This document shows, piece after piece, positions 140 through 18,726 of a stretch of DNA of 64,000 nucleotides. The stretch spans positions 1,126,151 through 1,190,150 of the forward strand of contig NZ_JAPNJW010000002.1 in assembly GCF_026626745.1 (NCBI RefSeq), given 5' to 3'. Below the pieces are notes generated by a model. That model saw only the letters and a program-made list of their open reading frames with translations, was not told the DNA's origin and ran no database searches. Source of the DNA: Nannocystis sp. RBIL2. Lineage in GTDB: Bacteria; Myxococcota_A; Polyangia; Nannocystales; Nannocystaceae. The position numbers and the translations under genes are program-made. Within the stretch, counting starts at the first letter, position 1, and every line of letters starts with the position of its first letter.

Positions 140-625
140 TCACATCAGCCGCTTGCGCATCGCCACGCAGCGCTGCGGCGATCTCGAGCCGCTGTCGCGG
201 CTGTCGCGGCGCCAGCCGAGCCGCTCGTAGAAGCCGACGGCGTTGAGCGTGGCCGACAAGCGCAGCTCCGCGGCGCCGAACGCTCGGGCGACTCGCTCGA
301 CGCGCTGCATCAGCCGCAGGCCGAGCCCGCCGCCGGTCGCCCCCGGGCTGACGTACATCGCTCGCACCTCGCGGGTCGCCAGGCGGACGGCCGCGAACGC
401 CACCACTTGCCCGGCGCGCTCGGCCACGTAGACCGTCGATGAGCGCAGCATGCGGTCGTACAGCCCCGGGCTCGGCGCGAGCCACTGCTCGATCGCCTGC
501 GGCGAGTAGTGGCCGGCGCACAGCGCTCGCACCGAGGCAGCATGGACCGTGGCGATCGCGGCGAGGTCAGCAGGCCGCGCCAGCCGGATCGACGGCGCCC
601 GCACCGCATGAGTGTACACTTGGAC
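140..625 (-). CDS. GNAT family N-acetyltransferase
   Basis: ORF 140..697, likely GTG start near 625. The translation has a GNAT acetyl-CoA binding core (VYVAERAGQVVAFAAV…MYVSPGATGGGLGLRLM…FYERLGW). Confidence 0.65.
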   Translation of the reverse strand, partial: VQVYTHAVRAPSIRLARPADLAAIATVHAASVRALCAGHYSPQAIEQWLAPSPGLYDRMLRSSTVYVAERAGQVVAFAAVRLATREVRAMYVSPGATGGGLGLRLMQRVERVARAFGAAELRLSATLNAVGFYERLGWRRDSRDSGSRSPQRCVAMRKRLM

Positions 626-642
626 CAGGAGTAATTCGCACC

Positions 643-1347
643 ATGCATCACCACGGCATCCTGGCGCTCGGCGTCGCTGGCCTGCTCTTCGCCGCATGCG
701 GCCCCGGGACAGCGAGCAAGGCCGAGCCCGCCCCTGCTCCGAGCAAAGTCGCCGCGCCCCCGCCGGCCGAGGCCAAACCGGCTCCGCCGCCCGCGCCCGC
801 GCCCGTCGGCCCTGGCCAGCTCGACACCGATCTCGTGCGCGCCGCCGGCACGGCCCAGGGTGTCGAGAAGATCAAGGTCGAGCTCGAGAAGGACGGCTCG
901 GTGCGCTACCTGTCCGTCTATCACCAGGACGCCGCCGCGGTGCCCGAGGCCGTGCGCAAGCAGCTCGACGCGACCTACCCCGGCGCCAAGGTGCTGCGCT
1001 ACGAGACCGAACACGTGGTCCCGCATGGCCGCCTGCACGAGGTCGAGGTCGAGACCGCCGACAAGCAACAGTGCGAGCTCAGCGCGAGGGCCGACGGCGG
1101 CGTCGTCTACACCGAGTGCCACATCGACGCCAAGGCCCTCCCCGAGCCCGTGCGCGCCGCGTTCGACAAGGCCCACCCCGGCGTTGCGATCAAGGAGGTC
1201 GAGAAGAAGACCCTCACCGGCGCCGGCGACGAGTACGAGATCGAGTTCGAGACCGGCGGTCGCCTGCACGAGCTCTACTTCAAGCCCGACGGCACCGTGA
1301 TCCGCCACGAGCTGGTGGTCCCTGCCGTCATCGAGGTCCCGGCCTAG
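643..1347 (+). CDS. PepSY-like lipoprotein (two tandem PepSY-like/DUF repeats)
   Basis: ATG at 643 gives MHHHGILALGVAGLLFAACG, a lipobox. The protein has an Ala/Pro-rich linker followed by two repeats of the YLSVYHQD… / YFKPDGTVIRHE type. Confidence 0.55.
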   Translation: MHHHGILALGVAGLLFAACGPGTASKAEPAPAPSKVAAPPPAEAKPAPPPAPAPVGPGQLDTDLVRAAGTAQGVEKIKVELEKDGSVRYLSVYHQDAAAVPEAVRKQLDATYPGAKVLRYETEHVVPHGRLHEVEVETADKQQCELSARADGGVVYTECHIDAKALPEPVRAAFDKAHPGVAIKEVEKKTLTGAGDEYEIEFETGGRLHELYFKPDGTVIRHELVVPAVIEVPA

Positions 1348-4506: not shown

Positions 4507-5877
4507 GTGCCCCGCCTCGCTCTGGTCGCGCCGTTCGCCCTCGTCCTCGCCTCAGGCCCCCTCCTCGTCGACACCGCGCAGGCCGGCCCGGTCCAGTTCG
4601 TCGAGCAGCGCAAGAACTTCATGGTGTTCGACGACGACGGCACCGTCGAGCACGCCAACTGGTTCTCGCGCACCGGCTTCTATAACGGCTACAACCCGCT
4701 CGAAGAGGGCTTCCTCGCCGCGCACCCGGACGACGCCCAGTTCATCGTCGTCTACTCGACCTTCAACCTCGTCGACGGCGTCGGCGCCTTCTATCAGGCG
4801 CTCGCCAACGACGTCGCCGGCATCGGCTACTCGCACGCCGCCGACTTCGACCCGGTGATCCCGGCCGAGTTCTTCGACGACACCCCGAACAGCCAGTTCA
4901 TCGGCATGCTGCACATGAACAACTGGCGGAAGTTCATCAAGACCGGCACCGAAGAGATCGACGACTGGTGGATCTCGCTGGTGTTCGGCCAGGAGCTGGG
5001 CCACGCGTGGCTGGCCTTCCCGCACGTCGCCGGCGGCGGCAACACCGAGCTGCTGCTCGGCCGCTCGCAGGCCCACTGGAACTTCTACATGCACACCAAC
5101 GGCTCGCCGGTCGAGGGCCACCGCTGGACCGACAACGGCGACGGCACCTTCACCGCGGACAAGCTCGACCAGTTCGAGTTCAGCGACCTCGACCTCTATC
5201 TCATGGGCCTCATGGACCCCTCCGAGGTGAAGCCGTGGTTCGTCATCGAGGACCCGCACGACTGCGTCGACTCCGCGCTGCCCAACCAGGCCTGCCCCGA
5301 ACCCAACTCGTTCCTCTTCAAGGCCGAGAGCTTCACCGTCAGCGGCACGCGGCGCGACGTCACCGTCGAAGAGGTGATCCAGGCCGAGGGCGAGCGCGTC
5401 CCCGCCTACCCCGACGCTCCCAACGAGTTCGGCATCTCCTTCGTCCTCCTCAAGCGCCCGGACGAGGTCCTGTGCGAGGAGGAGTACGCAGTCATCGACG
5501 AGATCGTCGACCGCTCGATCAATATGTGGGTCGGCCAGACCCGCGGCCGCGCCAACATCATCAACCGCACCTTCAGCGCCGACCCGATCCGCCCCGGCGT
5601 GTTCTGCGAGGCCGGCACCACCACCGGCAGCGACGACACTGGCGCCGATCCGACCGGCAGCGACGACACGGGCCCGACCGAGCCGACCACCACCGCCACC
5701 ACTGCTCCGACCACCTCGAGCAGCAGCAGCAGCGGCGGCCGCGACGAGGACAGCGACGGCGACACCAGCGGCAGCAACACCGACAGCGGCTGCGGCTGCC
5801 GCTCCCACGAGCCCGCCCCAGCCCTCGCCCTGCTGCTCGCCCTCGCTGCCATGCGTCGCCGCCGCGAACGCACCTGA
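4507..5877 (+). CDS. secreted protein with C-terminal MYXO-CTERM-type sorting signal
   Basis: N-terminal signal peptide ([26 protein letters not shown]). There is a Thr/Ser/Asp-rich linker, and the C-terminus is [29 protein letters not shown] (Cys motif, hydrophobic helix, Arg cluster). Confidence 0.7.
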
Positions 5878-8581: not shown

Positions 8582-8738
8582 ACGTCGTCCTGGACGAGCG
8601 CGGTCGGGCAGGTCCTTCGGGACATGTCCGGCCGCACATGTTTTTAAAGTCAGGCATCGCGGGCGGCGCGCGCGCGATACGACCTTTTGACTTGTTCGTC
8701 CGCTCGACCCGGATCAGAACTCGGGCGGAGGAACCATC

Positions 8739-12254: not shown

Positions 12255-14774
12255 TCAGAAGTCGATGTTGTCCTCGACGCGCAGGTCGACCGTGTTCTGC
12301 CAGCGCGGCAGCGAACCGCCGTACATCAGGGCGTACGCGGCCTGCACCTCGAGCACGCGGCGGGTGTAGTTGGCCGTCTCGCGGAACGGGATCTCGGCGA
12401 TGAAGACGTCGAGCTCGAGCGGGGCCGAGGTCGAGCCCTTGGCGGCCAGCCAGCGGGCGACGTTGAACGGGCCGCCGTTGTAGCTCGCGTAGGCCAGCGC
12501 GGCCTGGCCGTGGAACTTGTGCAGCAGCTCGGCGAAGTAATAGGCCGACAGGCGCACGTTGTGCTCCTCGTCGAACAGCGCGTCGACGTCGAACGACTCG
12601 CCGAGGCGCGCCGCCAGCTGCTGCCCGGTCCACGGCATGATCTGGATCGCCCCGCGCGCGCCCGACGACGACACCACGTGCCGGCGGAACCGCGACTCGG
12701 TGTACATCAGGGCCCACAGGTGCGTCGGGTCGAAGGCGCGGGCAGTGGCCTCGCGCTCGACCGCCTCGCGGAACGCCCGCGGGTGCCAGCGCGCCTTGTA
12801 CGAGCCGGCCGTGGCCGGCATCAGGCGGCTGCGGCGATACGGCTCGTCGAGCGCCCACGTCAGCGCGAACAGCCCCTCGCGCAGCGTCTCGCCGGCCCCG
12901 CGCTCGCGCACCAGCTTGCGCGCGTCCTTCGGCAGGCCGAGGCGCGGCTGCTTCCACGTCGACTTCCAGCTCAGCCCCACCACCAGGTCTTCGTGGCGCG
13001 GGACCCAGCCGCCGCGATCGAGCCCGTAGAGGCCCTCGTAGGCGTCGACTGCGACCCGCAGCTCGCGGCGCGCCTCGTCGAGCAGACCGGCGGCGTGGAG
13101 CGCCGCGCCGCGGGCCAGCGCCGGGAAGGCCCAGCCGAACTCGCCGGCCAGCGCCTCGAAGGTCGCGCGCGTGGCCGCGAAGTCGGGCGGCGCGTTCGAC
13201 TCCGCGGGCACCGGGGCGAGCGCCGGCAGCGGTCCCGGATCGGCGCCGATGTCGAGCAGCCGCTGGCGCGCCTGCAGGCCGTAGTAGCCGAGCGGATCCT
13301 CGGCCACGAGCTGTCGCAGCAGCCGCTCGGCCTCGCCGCGATCGGGGGTCTGCTCTTCGCCTGCGTCGCCTGTCGCCTTCGCGCCGGTGCCGGCGGCCAG
13401 CAGCGCGCGGGCGCGGAAGTAGCGGGCAGCGCGGGCCTGGTCGGCCGGCAGGCGGCGCTCCGCGCTGGCGAACGCGGTCGCAGCGGCGTCGAAGTCGCCG
13501 AGGCGGAAGTCGAGCCAGGCGTCGAGCCACAGCCCCTCCCCGCGCTGGCGCTCCTTCGCCTGCGTGCGCCCGAGCAGTTCGCGCGCCTTCTCGTAGCGGC
13601 CGCCGCGGACCGCCTGGCGGATCGCCTCCCACAGCGCCGCGCGCCCGGCCCCGCCCTTGCGGCCGGCCTGCTCGGTCCAGATCGCCAGCGCCTCGTCGTA
13701 GCGCCCGGCCTTGTCGAGGCAGCGCAGCAGGTCGCCGCGGAGGTCGGCCGAGGCTGACTTTTTGGACAGGACCGAAAGGTCATCCGCGCACGCGCCGTAG
13801 TCATGGGCGCGCGAGGCGGTCGACGCCCGCGAGCGCAACGCGACCTCTCGGACATGTCCCGGAGTTTTGGAATCTTCGACCAGGTCGGTCAGCACCCGGC
13901 GCGACAGCGTCATGTCGCGCGAGCGGCGGGCCGCGGCCGCGCGGTCGAGCTGCTCGGCCGCGCTGTAGCGGACCGGGCGCCCGAGCTCCGCCAGCGCCGC
14001 CTCGGCGCCGACGGCCGCCTCCGTGCCGGCGCGCCAGATGGCCACGGTGCGCAGCGCCTTGACCGCGTCGGCGGTCTTGCCCTCGCGCGCGATCGCCTGC
14101 GCCCGCAGCAGCTCGAGGCCGGCGGCGTCGGGGTGCTCGGGGTAGTCGCGCAGCACCTCGGTCAGCGCCTTGACTGCGCGGCGCGCCGCCGCCTGGCCCT
14201 CGATCGCCGCCATCGTCCGCGCCCGCGCCACTCGCATCGGCGCCGCGTTGCGCACCGGCTCGTGGTCGATCGCCCGCTCCCACGCCGCCACCGCCTGCTT
14301 GCGCAGCGCGTCGGCCTCGGCGCCCGGGGCCGACGCCGCCGCCTCGACCAGCGCCTGGGCGTACTCGTGAAGCACCACCTCGTGCGGCCACGACTTGGCC
14401 GGCCGCCGCTCCGCCGCCAGCTCGGCCAACGCCTGGACCGCTTCGGCCGGGCGACCCAGCTCGCGAGCGGCGCGGGCCTTCGTCAGGCGCTGCACCGAGG
14501 CTTGCAGCGACCCGGCTGCCGCGGGCTCGTGAGCCAGGCGCGCGAGCGCGGCCTCGGGTTCGCCGCGCGCCAGCAAGGCCGCCGCGGAGACCTCCGCAGG
14601 CGCCTGGGGCGGCAGGGCGGCTGCCGGTGGGGTCGGCGTCCCTGCGGTCGGGGGTCGGGCGCTGAGGGGGATCTGATTGACGCCCCGATGCACGCGCTCG
14701 GCTTCGGGGGTGAGCGCCGCGGGGCGACAGGCGAGCAGCGCCGTGGTCGCCATGCACAGCGTCAGGGCAGACAT
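12255..14774 (-). CDS. soluble lytic murein transglycosylase (Slt70-like; TPR/superhelical domain + SLT domain)
   Basis: N-terminal lipoprotein-like signal (MSALTLCMATTALLAC), a long Ala-rich superhelical region, and a C-terminal SLT catalytic region (…ESRFRRHVVSSSGARGAIQIMPWTG…ASYNGGPFNV). Confidence 0.85.
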   Translation of the reverse strand: MSALTLCMATTALLACRPAALTPEAERVHRGVNQIPLSARPPTAGTPTPPAAALPPQAPAEVSAAALLARGEPEAALARLAHEPAAAGSLQASVQRLTKARAARELGRPAEAVQALAELAAERRPAKSWPHEVVLHEYAQALVEAAASAPGAEADALRKQAVAAWERAIDHEPVRNAAPMRVARARTMAAIEGQAAARRAVKALTEVLRDYPEHPDAAGLELLRAQAIAREGKTADAVKALRTVAIWRAGTEAAVGAEAALAELGRPVRYSAAEQLDRAAAARRSRDMTLSRRVLTDLVEDSKTPGHVREVALRSRASTASRAHDYGACADDLSVLSKKSASADLRGDLLRCLDKAGRYDEALAIWTEQAGRKGGAGRAALWEAIRQAVRGGRYEKARELLGRTQAKERQRGEGLWLDAWLDFRLGDFDAAATAFASAERRLPADQARAARYFRARALLAAGTGAKATGDAGEEQTPDRGEAERLLRQLVAEDPLGYYGLQARQRLLDIGADPGPLPALAPVPAESNAPPDFAATRATFEALAGEFGWAFPALARGAALHAAGLLDEARRELRVAVDAYEGLYGLDRGGWVPRHEDLVVGLSWKSTWKQPRLGLPKDARKLVRERGAGETLREGLFALTWALDEPYRRSRLMPATAGSYKARWHPRAFREAVEREATARAFDPTHLWALMYTESRFRRHVVSSSGARGAIQIMPWTGQQLAARLGESFDVDALFDEEHNVRLSAYYFAELLHKFHGQAALAYASYNGGPFNVARWLAAKGSTSAPLELDVFIAEIPFRETANYTRRVLEVQAAYALMYGGSLPRWQNTVDLRVEDNIDF

Positions 14775-15099
14775 CCGCTTCGGGTGGCTCGCCGGCGCCA
14801 TGGTCCCCTCAAACTAGCACAGCCCCCGGGACGCGCCGAGAAACCGGTCCCCCGCCCCGGCCGCGAGGCGCCTGTCCCCAGAGACCGGTCCGGCCCAGGA
14901 GAGGCGCGAGGACGAAGCGTACAGCCGCAGTCGCGGCGGCCTTTCGCGCCGGAGCGCCGCGATCGATCGCCCGGAGGACCGAGGATGACGAGGGCGTCAC
15001 CCGCGACCTCCTGCTCGCGCCGCAGTACCCGCGGCCGATCGACCCGGCGAGAGGGAGCCGATCCCAGGATCGCGGCCCCCTTCCGCGCCGCCGCGATCA

Positions 15100-15430
15100 C
15101 GGCCGAGCGCCCGTGCGACACGAGGTCCCCGCGGTCGCGGCGGTCTCTCCGTTCGCGCCGCCGGACACGCCCTTGCGAGGCGAGGTCGATCCCGCCGTCG
15201 CGGCGGCCTCCCCGTTCGCGCCTTTACACGCGGCCGAGCGGTCCTGTGAAACGAGGACGCCCCCTGCACTCACGACGGTCTCCCTCCGCGCCGCGAGAAC
15301 GCGGCCGAGCGCTCCCGCGAGACGCTCGCGGCGGCCTCCCCGTTCGCGCCCGTACACGCAGTCGAGCGCTCCTGCGACACGAGGCCGATCTTCTCGGGAT
15401 CGCGGCGGCCTCCCCGTTCGCCCCGCCGTG
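15100..15430. repeat. degenerate ~60-bp direct repeat family (4-5 copies) in non-coding gap
   Basis: The core GTCGCGGCGGCCTCCCCGTTCGCGCC recurs at 15134, 15198, 15326 and 15399, each followed by a …CGAGCGNTCCTGNGANACGAGG module. Confidence 0.7.
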
Positions 15431-15783
15431 AATCGCTCGCGCGACGGCCGGCGCGCGAAGGATGGAACGCGAGCGTCGGCGCGATCGCGGCCCGCCTCGG
15501 GCCGATCACCAGCGCGCCGCTGTGGCCGCGGACCTGGGGCCATGCGGCACGCGGCGCGCGGGCAAGTGACAGTGGAAGCGCGCGACATGACCCTACAGAC
15601 ATGTCCGAAGGGCTCCCACGAAATCGCATCAGGTCGGCCCGCCCGCGATTCACCGTAGTGGACGTGGTTGCGGTCGAATTCGCAGAAGTGATCGGGGCTC
15701 GGGCGAAAATGTGGGCCGTCCGCGTGCGGACCCGAAAATGCACCGAGCGATAATGTTGCGACTGCTGTGCTCGCTTTTTCGGT

Positions 15784-15812
15784 TTGACAAGCACCGTCGG
15801 CACGGACAAGAA
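15784..15812 (+). promoter_or_regulatory. candidate sigma70-like promoter (TTGACA-N17/18-AAGAAT)
   Basis: TTGACA at 15784-15789 with an A/T-rich -10-like hexamer 17-18 bp downstream. This lies in an otherwise GC-rich gap. Confidence 0.3.
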
Positions 15813-15821
15813 TGGAAGCGT

Positions 15822-16018
15822 CGGTCGGTCCTCCTCTCTGCACCCCGGTGCACGGCTGCCGGCCGCGATTCAAGCCCGAGCATCTCGGTCTTGATAAGCC
15901 GGCAGTCTTCGGTCCTTCGCGGCTGAAGCGTGTACCGTGGTGAGAGGAGGCCCGATCGAATTCGAGGTGTGTTGTTGAGGCGTGAGCGGGCACGGATGAG
16001 GACCGTGCCCGCTTTTTT
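15822..16018 (+). ncRNA. candidate small RNA (~190-200 nt) with terminal closing helix and intrinsic terminator
   Basis: No coding ORF. The 5' GGTCCTCCTCTC (15836-47) is complementary to the 3' GAGAGGAGGCC (15939-49). The transcript ends in a GC hairpin GCGGGCACGG-atgaggacc-GTGCCCGC followed by TTTTTTT (15982-16025). Confidence 0.35.
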
Positions 16019-16025
16019 TCATGCT
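15982..16025 (+). terminator. Rho-independent terminator (stem-loop + T7)
   Basis: gagcgggcacggatgaggaccgtgcccgcttttttt: an 8-9 bp GC stem followed by 7 T residues, which is rare in this GC-rich DNA. Confidence 0.7.
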
Positions 16026-16141: not shown

Positions 16142-18313
16142 TCACGGGGCCTTGAGCGTCACCGTGTAGTCGCCCGCGCCGCTGGCCGACACGACCTGCC
16201 AGGTGTAGTAGCCCGCGGTGCCCTGATAGTTGATGGACTCGTTGTTGGTCGGGCCCTCCGACTTGGCGACCTTGGCCCAGGCGGAGCCGTTCCACTTGTA
16301 GAGGTAGAGATCGAAGTCGGCCCCGGCCGGACCCGCGAGACAGCCGGTGTGCGCCCCGCTCTTGCTCGTGGAGTAGTACGAGCCGCTCGGCTGGAACTGC
16401 TCCTTGCCGCTGCCGCTCAGGTTGCCCTTGAAGGGCGTGCCCGAACAGGTCTGCCCGCCGCCGTCGCCGCCCCCGCCGTCGCCATTGGGGCCACCCGGCA
16501 CGCCCACCGCCGTCCACGCGGCATGGACCGCCGCGACCGCCTCGGCGTCGTAAAGCTCGGAGGCCGCCTGAGCCGTCGCGTCGCGAGCGTCCTGGAACGT
16601 CGCGTTGGAGTTGAGGTAGTTCGTCAGCGCGCGGTAGAAGATCTGCGCCGCCTTGTCGATGCCGAGCGCCGGCACCACCGTCGTCGTCTTGTTGCGCGGG
16701 TGCTTGCCCCCCTGCGACAGCAGGTAGAACGCCAGGTTGGCGATGCCCGAATTGATGTGGACGCCGCCGTTGTCCTGCTGACCGGTGTAGCGCTCCGGGT
16801 AGTAATCGTACGACTGCCCGTCCTGGGTCGGATTGGCCATGTAGCGCATCGCGTCATTGGCCACACCCGGGGTCCAGCAGGTCTCGGCGAGCAGCCAGGT
16901 CTTGGCCGACACGCCGTTCTTGAAGGCGTCGGCGGCCGCCGCCATGATGTCCGACATCGCCTCGTTGAGCGCGCCCGACTGGTTCTGGTAGACGAGGCTG
17001 GCCTCGTACTGCGTGACCGCGTGGGTCAGCTCGTGGGCCACCACGTCGAGGTCCTGCGCGAACGGGCTGGCGTAGTAGCCGTCGCCGTCGCCGTAGACCA
17101 TCTGCTGGCCGTTCCAGAACGCGTTGACGTAGTTCTTCGAGTAATGCACGGTCGAGTGGATGGTCGCGCCGGCGGCGTCGAAGCTGTCGCGGCCGAACTT
17201 GCTCACGTAGAAGTCGTAGACGACGCCCGAGAGGTCGTTGGCGGCCTGGACCACCTTGTCGTCGCTCGCGCCGCCCTCGCTGACGACCAGCTTGCCCGGC
17301 AGCTTGGTGCCGTTGTTGGCGTCGTAGACCTTGCGGTTCTTGGCGTGGTGGATCTGCGGGTGGCGGGCCACCATCTCGCCGCTCACGGCGTCCGCGAACA
17401 CGATGTCGCGCTGCGGCCCCTCCTCGTCCTCGTACTCGACCACCGCCTGCCAGGCCAGCCGCGGGCCGGCCTCGGTCACCACGTAGACGAGCTCGGGCAC
17501 GTCGACGCTGGCCCACTCGGCGGCGAGGCGGTCGGCCACGGCCTCGATCGCCTCGTCGGGATCGAGCGTCGGCGCCAGCGGCAGCGCCTCGGCCGGGACG
17601 ACGCGGCCGGTGACCGCCTGGACCTGCCCGCTGGCCGCGTCGGCGTGGACCGTCAGCTCGCCGCCGACCACCGGCAGGTCGTGGAGGTACTGCCGGAAGC
17701 GCACGTGGACCTTGCCGAGCGAGTCGGTGTGGTGGCGGACCGCCTCGAGGTCGGTCTCGTCGCCGAGGCGGAACACCGGCGCCATGTCGGCCAGCCAGCC
17801 GCGGGCGCTCTCCCGCACGTTGCCGCCGCCGGTCAGCGTCCCGAGGTCGCCGGCGATGAAGCGCGGCACGCCGGCCTCGTCGGCCTGCACCCGGTCGACC
17901 CGCGGCAGGCGACCGAGCGCCTGGCTCTGCGACCACACGAACGTCGCCGTCCCGCCCGCCGAGGTCGCGGCCTGGACCATCTCGCCGTCGAGCTCGAACG
18001 CGAAGTCGGCGGCCGCTCCGGCGGTCTGCACGCCCCAGCGCGCGCCGTGGCGGAGCAGCAGGTCCTGCACGAGCGCGGGCCGCTCGTCGCCGCTGCGCAC
18101 GGATACGCGGGTGAAATCGATCGGCCCGTCGGTCAACGCGAAGCGCACTGCCCCTTCGGACAGGTCGATCTCGAGGACCTCGCCTGGGCCGAGCGCCGCC
18201 ACGTCGTCGGCGGTGACGGTGCGAGACTCGGTTTCGACGGCGATTCCCCCCTCTTGGCAGGCGGACAGCAGACAGGCGGAGACGGCAGAGACGATGATGC
18301 GACGAGCGGACAT
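16142..18313 (-). CDS. M4 (thermolysin-family) zinc metalloprotease lipoprotein with C-terminal PPC domain
   Basis: Lipobox MSARRIIVSAVSACLLSAC. HEXXH motif (VVAHELTHAV) and third zinc ligand (NEAMSD). The C-terminal domain is pre-peptidase-like (…DFDLYLYKWNGSAW…YTWQVVSASGAGDYTVTL). Confidence 0.85.
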   Translation of the reverse strand: MSARRIIVSAVSACLLSACQEGGIAVETESRTVTADDVAALGPGEVLEIDLSEGAVRFALTDGPIDFTRVSVRSGDERPALVQDLLLRHGARWGVQTAGAAADFAFELDGEMVQAATSAGGTATFVWSQSQALGRLPRVDRVQADEAGVPRFIAGDLGTLTGGGNVRESARGWLADMAPVFRLGDETDLEAVRHHTDSLGKVHVRFRQYLHDLPVVGGELTVHADAASGQVQAVTGRVVPAEALPLAPTLDPDEAIEAVADRLAAEWASVDVPELVYVVTEAGPRLAWQAVVEYEDEEGPQRDIVFADAVSGEMVARHPQIHHAKNRKVYDANNGTKLPGKLVVSEGGASDDKVVQAANDLSGVVYDFYVSKFGRDSFDAAGATIHSTVHYSKNYVNAFWNGQQMVYGDGDGYYASPFAQDLDVVAHELTHAVTQYEASLVYQNQSGALNEAMSDIMAAAADAFKNGVSAKTWLLAETCWTPGVANDAMRYMANPTQDGQSYDYYPERYTGQQDNGGVHINSGIANLAFYLLSQGGKHPRNKTTTVVPALGIDKAAQIFYRALTNYLNSNATFQDARDATAQAASELYDAEAVAAVHAAWTAVGVPGGPNGDGGGGDGGGQTCSGTPFKGNLSGSGKEQFQPSGSYYSTSKSGAHTGCLAGPAGADFDLYLYKWNGSAWAKVAKSEGPTNNESINYQGTAGYYTWQVVSASGAGDYTVTLKAP

Positions 18314-18726
18314 GAGACCCCCTTGAGCCATCGGACAGGGTCTAAAGACCCTGGCCGAACGGCCATGGTGAAAAGGACATTGCCGGAGAGGCAGCCTCAG
18401 GTCAGCTCACCTGAGACCGCACCACCATAATCGTCGCCTGCTGCGCAGCGCAACCATTCACGCACCCCCGGATCACGCCTTTGTTCGGTGAGACCGCGAG
18501 CACAAAGAGGCCGCACGGACGCACTTCACGCGGAGGGGGACGAAAGCCAAAATACAAATTTTTCGCGGTCTGGACAGGTTTTGGAGCTAACTACGACGAT
18601 CACACGATCGGCGTTCGCGGCGCCGACAAGAAAATTGTAGATCAAATTACGTATTCTTCCTCTATTGATTAGAGCGCACCTCACCGCAATGCATGATCAA
18701 CAAACCATGCTCACAGGTCTGAGGTC

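Follow-up and report, generated by a model that had tools for sequence, protein, structure and literature searches.

A 64,000-nt stretch of the Nannocystis sp. RBIL2 genome (contig NZ_JAPNJW010000002.1, positions 1,126,151 to 1,190,150; hereafter the window, whose own positions are used throughout) very probably carries a gene for a non-coding RNA of about 200 nt at 15820-16019 on the plus strand. The gene lies in a 1.3-kb gap with a minus-strand gene on either side, one for a lytic transglycosylase (SLT) and one for an M4 peptidase. Our best overall explanation, to which we assign a probability of roughly 0.55, is a trans-acting small RNA (sRNA) of an undescribed family with a functional 3' module. 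That the RNA is transcribed, where it begins and ends, that it acts in trans and that it has a seed, we infer from the sequence and its comparison among relatives. The initial annotation of the window had proposed a stand-alone sRNA gene of this length with its own promoter and terminator, a reading that the comparative evidence now strongly supports: the candidate is intergenic and on one strand, and it has a promoter and a terminator that are both conserved in all homologues. The family is probably undescribed and, in the loci fetched, confined to Nannocystis and related myxobacterial metagenome lineages.

Promoter, terminator and predicted fold

The predicted gene and the sequence directly before it comprise the following elements:

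15727-15783, plus strand: promoter-upstream block, with CGAAAATG repeats and a T-rich, UP-element-like tract (CTTTTTCGG) directly before the -35
15784-15813, plus strand: sigma-70-type promoter, -35 TTGACA (15784-15789), 18-nt spacer, -10 AAGAAT (15808-15813)
15820-16019, plus strand: predicted sRNA transcript of about 200 nt, 5' end placed from the -10 and 3' end from the T run
15821-15838, plus strand: P1 5' arm, UCGGUCGG-U-CCUCCUCUC, C/U-rich and anti-Shine-Dalgarno-like
15869-15894, plus strand: hairpin P4, UUCAAGCCCGAGCAUCUCGGUCUUGA, invariant within the Nannocystis-type body
15907-15928, plus strand: variable hairpin, third arm of the Y, with pairing-keeping changes or deletion
15937-15959, plus strand: 3' arm of P2/P1, including the Shine-Dalgarno-like GAGG motif 1, GAGAGGAGG (15942-15950)
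15964-15967, plus strand: GAGG motif 2 (UCGAGGU), within AUCGAGGU, conserved across lineages
15971-15982, plus strand: G/U-rich 12-mer GUUGUUGAGGCG, holding GAGG motif 3; candidate seed or binding site
15985-16019, plus strand: intrinsic terminator, stem AGCGGGCACGG / CCGUGCCCGCU, loop AUGAGGA, T7

The TTGACA and AAGAAT boxes named in the initial annotation lie where it had placed them. Together they match the consensus at 10 of 12 positions and form the best site in 12 kb, a region with 2 promoter-like sites compared with 0.4 expected from shuffles. The promoter is invariant across Nannocystis sequences, and every homologue is preceded by TTGACA-N17/18-(AAGAAT / CATAAC / TATTGAT). The upstream block, a putative functional element, is nearly invariant in 6 Nannocystis sequences, and a T-rich tract stands ahead of the -35 in all lineages. 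Because the promoter is strong and has this T-rich upstream tract, the RNA would be abundant.

At the other end, a 12-pair stem (15984-16014) that includes a perfect 11-bp stem (15985-15995 / 16003-16013) and a 7-nt loop leads into T7 at 16013-16019. The two strands of the window hold 19 T runs of at least 5, and the one at the RNA is the sole T run of at least 7 directly abutting a perfect hairpin in the 64 kb. The scan thus agrees with the earlier description of a canonical terminator otherwise almost absent from the window.

The 206-nt stretch folds with an energy of -115.2 kcal/mol, compared with -81.9 +/- 4.4 for 200 dinucleotide shuffles (z = -7.5), none of which folded as well (0/200). 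A 23-nt inverted repeat (15821-15843 / 15937-15959, 83% complementary) contains the 5'/3' closing helix that had been proposed, in which the 5' arm GGTCCTCCTCTC (15827-15838) pairs with GAGAGGAGGCC (15942-15952). The body is predicted to be Y-shaped and closed by an anti-Shine-Dalgarno/Shine-Dalgarno (SD)-like helix, CCUCCUCUC : GAGAGGAGG, with a largely single-stranded 3' tail and the terminator hairpin after it.

The structure was tested in seven sequences, i.e. the window, five Nannocystis species and the metagenomic locus L130, across which mean column identity is 90-93%. In these, 96% of cells are paired in the proposed structure vs 34-44% when the partners are slid. Helix 1 (17 pairs) has 98% of cells paired, and all ten pairs of P4 (10/10) are invariant, including in L130, where the neighbouring peptidase is 72% identical; P4 is absent from other lineages. 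Three pairs of P2, whose 3' strand reaches upstream to about 15929, changed on both sides (A-U to G-C; a C.U mismatch to G-C or A-U; A-U to G-C), the mismatch position being C.U in four sequences, G-C in one and A-U in two. In the third arm, changes of G-U to G-C and U-G to C-G keep pairing in N. punicea and N. bainbridge, and the arm is wholly deleted in N. radixulma and L130. Folding and a search for covariation had been suggested in the initial annotation. The fold is far more stable than those of the shuffles, and support from covariation in the Nannocystis body is modest (the three P2 pairs), because most pairs are invariant and the sequences too similar.

The orthologous gaps of N. pusilla, N. 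exedens, N. punicea, N. bainbridge and N. radixulma (L001-L005) have an essentially identical promoter, first 90 nt, 3' 85 nt and terminator, with a flanking SLT protein that is 87-98% identical. Immediately after the T run, and over most of the remaining gap, the DNA of Nannocystis species can no longer be aligned. Lack of conservation in relatives had been named as the finding that would count against an RNA here, and what we found is near-invariance in five species with flanks that decay.

A coding function of the RNA region is excluded on comparative grounds. No open reading frame (ORF) of the gap has a Pfam match, orthologous RNAs differ by 1-, 2- and ~20-nt indels, which are frameshifting, and no frame is open through the RNA in N. 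bainbridge (stops in 6/6 frames), so there is no conserved reading frame and the earlier statement that the gap has no credible coding sequence holds. Public gene callers left the gap without a called gene in three of the four related contigs. G+C content falls from ~77% to ~61% over 15550-16000.

Homologues and the conserved 3' module

The genes on either side of the gap are as follows:

12255-14801, minus strand: lytic transglycosylase (SLT/TPR) gene on the other side of the gap, product 98% identical to N. pusilla SLT
16142-18331, minus strand: M4 (thermolysin-type) peptidase gene, convergent with the RNA gene and next past its terminator, product 100% identical to a Nannocystis sp. ILAH1 protein

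Loci of relatives were fetched mostly through M4 peptidase orthologues or the SLT protein. All orthologous loci fetched, whose peptidases are 72% to 51% identical, have the RNA gene downstream of the peptidase gene and convergent with it. The distance from peptidase stop codon to RNA terminator is ~7-170 nt in these loci, and 122 nt separate terminator and peptidase gene in Nannocystis. No RNA gene was found beside the 58%-identical M4 paralogue of N. punicea (L142, CP114040.1 8794316-8804496), which is followed by a glyoxalase-family gene. On the other side, the neighbour is the divergent SLT gene in Nannocystis and L130-L135, and a co-directional, upstream thiolase/FadB-type operon in L024, L136-L140, L144, L146 and metagenome-assembled genomes (MAGs). 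A 1066-aa ORF between the RNA and SLT in the MAGs was dismissed as a gene, being a shadow over the thiolase and FadB-like genes on the other strand.

Locus L076 keeps the RNA gene and has lost the peptidase, so the RNA does not depend on the peptidase in cis. The downstream gene in L076, which is co-directional and begins ~170 nt past the terminator, is orthologous (60% identical) to that of the hypothetical protein next to the L138 peptidase. Elsewhere the downstream gene is convergent, in the window and nearly all homologous loci, and no Rfam cis-regulatory model matches; a riboswitch or 5' leader was therefore rejected. Both the absence of a co-directional gene downstream in the window and the conclusion that the RNA is neither leader nor riboswitch had been put forward earlier, and both stand.

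We distinguish form A, the homologues with an invariant 12-mer and a GAGGA-loop hairpin, from form B, a ~320-nt RNA in the same slot. The 12-mer GUUGUUGAGGCG is unchanged in each of the 14 aligned form-A sequences and also in L144, although their neighbouring peptidases are only 56-100% identical, and has a single exact copy in the window. Its predicted unpaired probability in Nannocystis is 0.57, compared with 0.23 for the body. The 3' order in form A is (A)GGAGG(U), AUCGAGGU, the 12-mer, the hairpin GCGGGCA(C/G)GG-A(A/U)GAGGA-CC(G/C)UGCCCGC and a U tail, and the (A)GGAGG(U) motif at the place of motif 1 is kept in most form-A lineages. Both the terminator stem sequence and the GAGGA loop, which holds GAGG motif 4 (15998-16001), are conserved in all form-A homologues. 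Independent compensatory changes occurred in the hairpin, from C-G to G-C in L136/138/140 and from G-C to A-U in copy 1 of L144 and in L146. L144 has a tandem duplication of the hairpin (~4796-4870, minus strand) whose first copy, the one with the compensatory change, has no U tail and is hard to account for by termination alone.

GAGG occurs 3-7 times per RNA where 0.6-2.1 are expected (p <= 0.03 in each of 11 form-A members), and 5 times in the window RNA vs 1.6 expected. The trinucleotide GGA is at background, with 3-6 copies in form-A members compared with 3-4.6 expected and 3 in the window RNA compared with 4.0.

The 3' module is fixed across lineages, and the body (100-170 nt) is replaced wholesale. 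In Nannocystis and L130 the body is Y-shaped or rod-like with the invariant hairpin UUCAAGCCCGAGCAUCUCGGUCUUGA; in L132-L135 it consists of GC-rich GCGCGC hairpins, in L136-L140 it has C5-C7 loops (e.g., GGCC-CCCCC-GGCC), and in L024 and L144 it has a GGAGGAGC / GCUCCCUCC helix. The L132 homologue (5276-5501, minus strand) contains four tandem 16-nt units (CUGYUCGGCAGCAUUC), which shows that the body evolves by local repeat expansion.

A pattern scan of metagenomes with the terminator AGCGGGCACGG-N5-15-GTGCCCGCT was unspecific: it gave at least 120 matches, mostly unrelated terminators (e.g., from gut metagenomes), and only L024, L034, L076 and L085 were true relatives among the matches listed. 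Since the same stem is common in unrelated metagenome terminators, identity of the terminator stem alone is weak evidence of homology, and the case for homology rests on synteny, the adjoining AGGCGCAAA and the 12-mer. The one match on a viral contig is a chance occurrence inside a coding sequence, without a hairpin, and an association with phages or mobile elements was rejected.

In deeper Nannocystaceae/Polyangia lineages, where the peptidase is at most 55% identical, the slot is occupied by the ~320-nt RNA, on the same strand and with the same promoter type:

L007, 5583-5912, minus strand: ~320-nt RNA
L006, 5546-5880, minus strand: ~320-nt RNA
L008, 5572-5898, minus strand: ~320-nt RNA
L085, ~504-887, plus strand: ~320-nt RNA
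L145, ~4700-5025, minus strand: ~320-nt RNA
L146, ~4730-5040, minus strand: ~320-nt RNA

The larger form has its own promoter (TTGACA-N17-TATTGAT) and a homologous 3' end (AGGCGCAAA..AGCGGGCACGG..CCGUGCCCGC), in which an A-rich tract replaces the G/U-rich part. It folds into a multi-helix structure with a closing helix around several hairpins, and 20 of 107 predicted pairs have compensatory changes, in three sequences only. Rfam returned no match for it at gathering score and only sub-threshold noise at E <= 10, and it may represent a new type of large structured RNA. In view of synteny, orientation and the adjoining 9-mer, the simplest reading is that it shares its descent with the Nannocystis RNA.

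Proposed mechanism and alternative explanations

In the mechanism we propose, transcription would start at the housekeeping-type promoter and stop at the intrinsic terminator, and the functional end of the RNA would be its 3' module, consisting of the 12-mer directly 5' of the terminator and the GAGGA-loop hairpin, among four GAGG motifs. The 5' body would be a lineage-specific, replaceable module. The invariant 12-mer would act as a seed that pairs with C/A-rich mRNA sites, and the conserved hairpin would provide stability and bind a partner. Such a trans-acting riboregulator would need no Hfq, since hfq is reported absent from myxobacteria (PMC5684412). In Hfq-less Myxococcus xanthus, sRNAs pair with mRNAs near SD sites, according to a TRIC-seq preprint (bioRxiv 10.1101/2025.09.11.675593).

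That the RNA works as a base-pairing regulator through its 3' module we propose tentatively, at somewhat below even odds. Several results weigh against it, or against the overall explanation. The predicted unpaired probability of the 12-mer is only 0.12-0.41 in L132-L140, and body covariation in Nannocystis is thin. Duplexes of the whole RNA with peptidase leaders gave no signal (z -1.8 to +3.0). The 24-nt tail found no recurrent site in the 5' regions of M4, SLT, permease, TspO and thiolase genes from 8 lineages, with energies no better than background. A search of the window for the complement of the 12-mer gave 13 hits vs 5.4 expected, and all except its own copy have 1-2 mismatches and lie in ordinary GC-rich sequence. 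The conservation of the terminator stem and the hairpin duplication would moreover make a protein partner more natural than a pairing seed.

The main rival, a role in protein or ribosome binding, draws on the same elements. The four regularly spaced GAGG motifs and the GAGGA-loop hairpin would bind a myxobacterial protein or the CCUCC tail of 16S rRNA, and the RNA would titrate or scaffold its partner as CsrB/RsmZ do CsrA. This is unlikely, if worth serious attention: GAGG is 3-4 fold enriched in 11/11 form-A RNAs tested, the sequences of motifs 1 and 2 (AGGAGGU, GAGGU) are those of canonical SD sites that no conserved ORF follows, the terminator stem and loop are conserved in sequence far beyond the needs of termination, and the duplicated L144 hairpin has no U tail. 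Like the CsrB/RsmZ sponges, the RNA repeats a short purine motif in single-stranded stretches and a hairpin loop, and the stem-loop CACGGAUGA / CAGGGAAGA resembles the CsrA/RsmE consensus, CANGGANG. However, the motif is GAGG and not the CsrA-defining GGA, which is at background, there are about four copies compared with 7-22 in known sponges, and motif 1 is buried in P1 in Nannocystis (predicted unpaired probability 0.00). No candidate protein could be named, and literature look-ups on CsrA gave no statement on Myxococcota. The specific reading as a CsrA sponge was rejected, as GGA is not enriched in any member. We regard as doubtful the bolder idea that the fixed 3' handle (GUUGUUGAGGCG and the GAGGA-loop hairpin) docks an RNA-binding partner that replaces Hfq/ProQ, with the 5' body as swappable cargo; the locus would then be an ancient modular RNA gene in the slot between a fadBA-type operon (or SLT) and M4, with the ~320-nt five-helix form as one extreme.

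Readings that tie the element to its neighbours or deny it a stable RNA fare worse. The convergent arrangement, kept in all orthologous loci over 51-100% protein identity as the other neighbour changes, could point to a cis-linked regulator of the M4 peptidase acting by 3'-end antisense overlap, transcriptional interference or a shared terminator, and the hairpin of the ~320-nt form, next to which lies an A-rich tract that reads as T-rich on the opposite strand, could terminate both strands. The linkage is partly an ascertainment effect, though, because most loci were found through the peptidase or SLT protein; L076 has the RNA gene and no peptidase, the Nannocystis hairpin has no T tract on the peptidase strand with 122 nt between the genes, and there is no consistent complementarity with the peptidase leader, which leaves cis regulation quite improbable. 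We see very little chance that the conservation reflects a DNA-level regulatory sequence for the neighbours or a tiny peptide. Several lineages do share a 3-codon frame (GUG/AUG-UGU-UGU-UGA) and have an AUC located 4-9 nt downstream of the SD-like motif, yet these mini-frames vary in frame and length, the 12-mer is read in two frames, a 2-nt indel falls within the mini-frame in Nannocystis, and all six frames are closed in N. bainbridge. A small ORF (M-C-C-stop, or an AUC start after the SD-like motif) was rejected since its frames and lengths are not conserved. Against any such reading, more than 15 lineages have promoter, structured body and terminator correctly ordered along one strand, with compensatory changes in the RNA helices. 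Least credible of all is a 6S-like role, in which the RNA would sequester RNA polymerase by mimicking an open promoter. The initial annotation had drawn this analogy, and the length of ~200 nt, the long closing helix from the 5' and 3' ends and a strong promoter suggesting abundance agree with it. The analogy fails on the absence of a Rfam 6S match even at E <= 10, and on the predicted fold, a Y or rod whose internal loops are small and which lacks a large central bubble. Whereas 6S RNAs keep their architecture across phyla, the closing helix and body of this RNA are not conserved outside the Nannocystis clade and its architecture is not kept among homologues; it ends in a canonical terminator, and its conserved part, a single-stranded 12-mer and the terminator, has no 6S counterpart.

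Comparison of the proposed trans-acting sRNA with described RNAs likewise revealed no relative. Rfam 15, run on the whole window and 13 related loci, returned no family at gathering score, and at E <= 10 the gap gave only noise (miRNA precursors; ncr982, a Bacillus sRNA; the L20 leader), with the sub-threshold ncr982 and L20 leader matches lying largely in the terminator region. The initial annotation had suggested Rfam for 6S, Pxr and other families, none of which was matched. Like the proposed RNA, Pxr is intergenic and myxobacterial, works without Hfq and has several stem-loops and an intrinsic terminator, but it differs in size, fold and conserved motifs. It is restricted to the suborder Cystobacterineae (PMC5684412). 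Nannocystis stands outside that suborder, and with no Rfam match identity with Pxr was rejected. The literature searched gave no other well-characterised myxobacterial sRNA.

Enterobacterial sRNAs of the ArcZ/RprA type, which conserve only the 3' part with seed and terminator, require Hfq and processing by RNase E. The Nannocystis RNA resembles them in its own promoter, intrinsic terminator, short single-stranded conserved stretch 5' of the terminator and variable 5' two-thirds; unlike them, its family conserves the terminator stem sequence, and the RNA is homologous to them in neither sequence nor structure (Rfam gave no hit). GcvB is a Hfq-dependent sRNA with a G/U-rich seed that controls amino-acid and peptide uptake, its R1 seed GUUGUGUUGUUGUG targeting C/A-rich sites in transporter mRNAs. 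It is similar in its ~200 nt and G/U-rich single-stranded conserved element (GUGUGUUGUUGAGG vs R1 GUUGUGUUGUUGUG), a resemblance that is compositional only, and in its setting, since the Nannocystis RNA is near a secreted M4 peptidase, with an amino-acid permease in related loci. The Nannocystis-type seed, however, is at the 3' end, and no C/A-rich target sites were found. Identity with GcvB was rejected, as there is no Rfam GcvB match and Hfq is reported absent (PMC5684412). Elements resembling SD-targeting seeds are also present, namely CCUCCUCUC in the Nannocystis body and C5-C7 loops or CUCCCUCCC in other lineages. The CcsR/'cuckoo' sRNAs of Alphaproteobacteria have CCUCCUCCC anti-SD motifs of this kind; by contrast, the Nannocystis motif is fully paired in P1, the C-rich element varies across the family in both position and sequence, and Rfam gave no match. 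Multicopy single-stranded DNA has reportedly been described in Nannocystis, and a retron msr/msd was considered for the a1/a2-like terminal inverted repeat; it was rejected because no reverse-transcriptase gene follows and the terminator faces the convergent peptidase gene.

The locus offers a well-delimited, strongly conserved and probably abundant RNA with a directly mutable 12-nt element and hairpin. A fixed 3' module with a replaceable body, and a 320-nt relative in the same slot, is an unusual pattern that could lead to an RNA-binding partner specific to the lineage. Species of Nannocystis are predators that degrade proteins and produce natural products, and a regulator beside a secreted thermolysin-type peptidase and amino-acid uptake genes would be a plausible handle on their nutrition. 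If the RNA proves to be a routine base-pairing sRNA, it would still be a new family worth a Rfam entry, with no new principle; if the 3' handle reading is true, it would be an entry point to a new RNA-protein regulatory system in myxobacteria, and the significance would be larger should the ~320-nt relative turn out to represent a new class of structured RNA. The mechanism of sRNAs in myxobacteria is largely open because the phylum is reported without Hfq (PMC5684412).

Upstream element, repeats and peptidase leader

A further conserved element lies upstream of the promoter:

15563-15606, plus strand: distal upstream conserved element, AAGTGACAGT ... GACATGTCC

It is conserved in all Nannocystis loci and stays with the RNA gene even where both neighbours differ. 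In L024, L076, L136, L138, L140 and L144 it reads AAAGTGACAGTC-N-ATGG-N-GGACATGTCC-N-AGAGACAGCG, 190-400 nt upstream of the RNA promoter. A short ATG frame runs across the element, and its length is not conserved. The 10-bp palindrome GGACATGTCC is strongly over-represented in the window, with 23 sites (at most one mismatch) compared with 1.4 expected (e.g., at 8620, 13850, 29513, 37973, 38780 and 39738), and also occurs in L024, L076 and L136-L140. Every lineage has a copy 190-400 nt upstream of the sRNA promoter, and in some another copy closely follows the terminator. The palindrome may serve as a site for a regulator or be a repetitive extragenic palindromic (REP)-like element.

The stretch from the SLT start codon to the sRNA contains, at 14920-15430, a degenerate array of repeats of ~64 nt, each with GGCCUCCCCG on the plus strand (GGGGAGGCC on the minus strand). 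Its copy number varies among Nannocystis species, as does the gap length. TRF called no clean tandem array in this region, and a reading as dispersed repeats was rejected because the repeats are confined to that intergenic region in the window and the loci searched.

The leader of the M4 peptidase gene (18314-18480, minus strand) and its equivalents in L130-L140 are long and conserved and may be a cis-regulatory RNA, for which Rfam gave no match. Its elements are a TATGGT box and CUCAGG..CCUGAG, CCAUGG..GGCCAGGG and GGGUCU..AGACCC hairpins, and the hairpins precede an AAGGGGG/AAGGAGG ribosome-binding site. Upstream of this leader is an A+T-rich stretch (18590-18720, minus strand; ttgatcatgcattgcgg...aatcaatagaggaagaatacgtaatttgatctacaattttcttg) that is unusual in a genome of ~72% G+C and is possibly a complex promoter or regulator-binding region.

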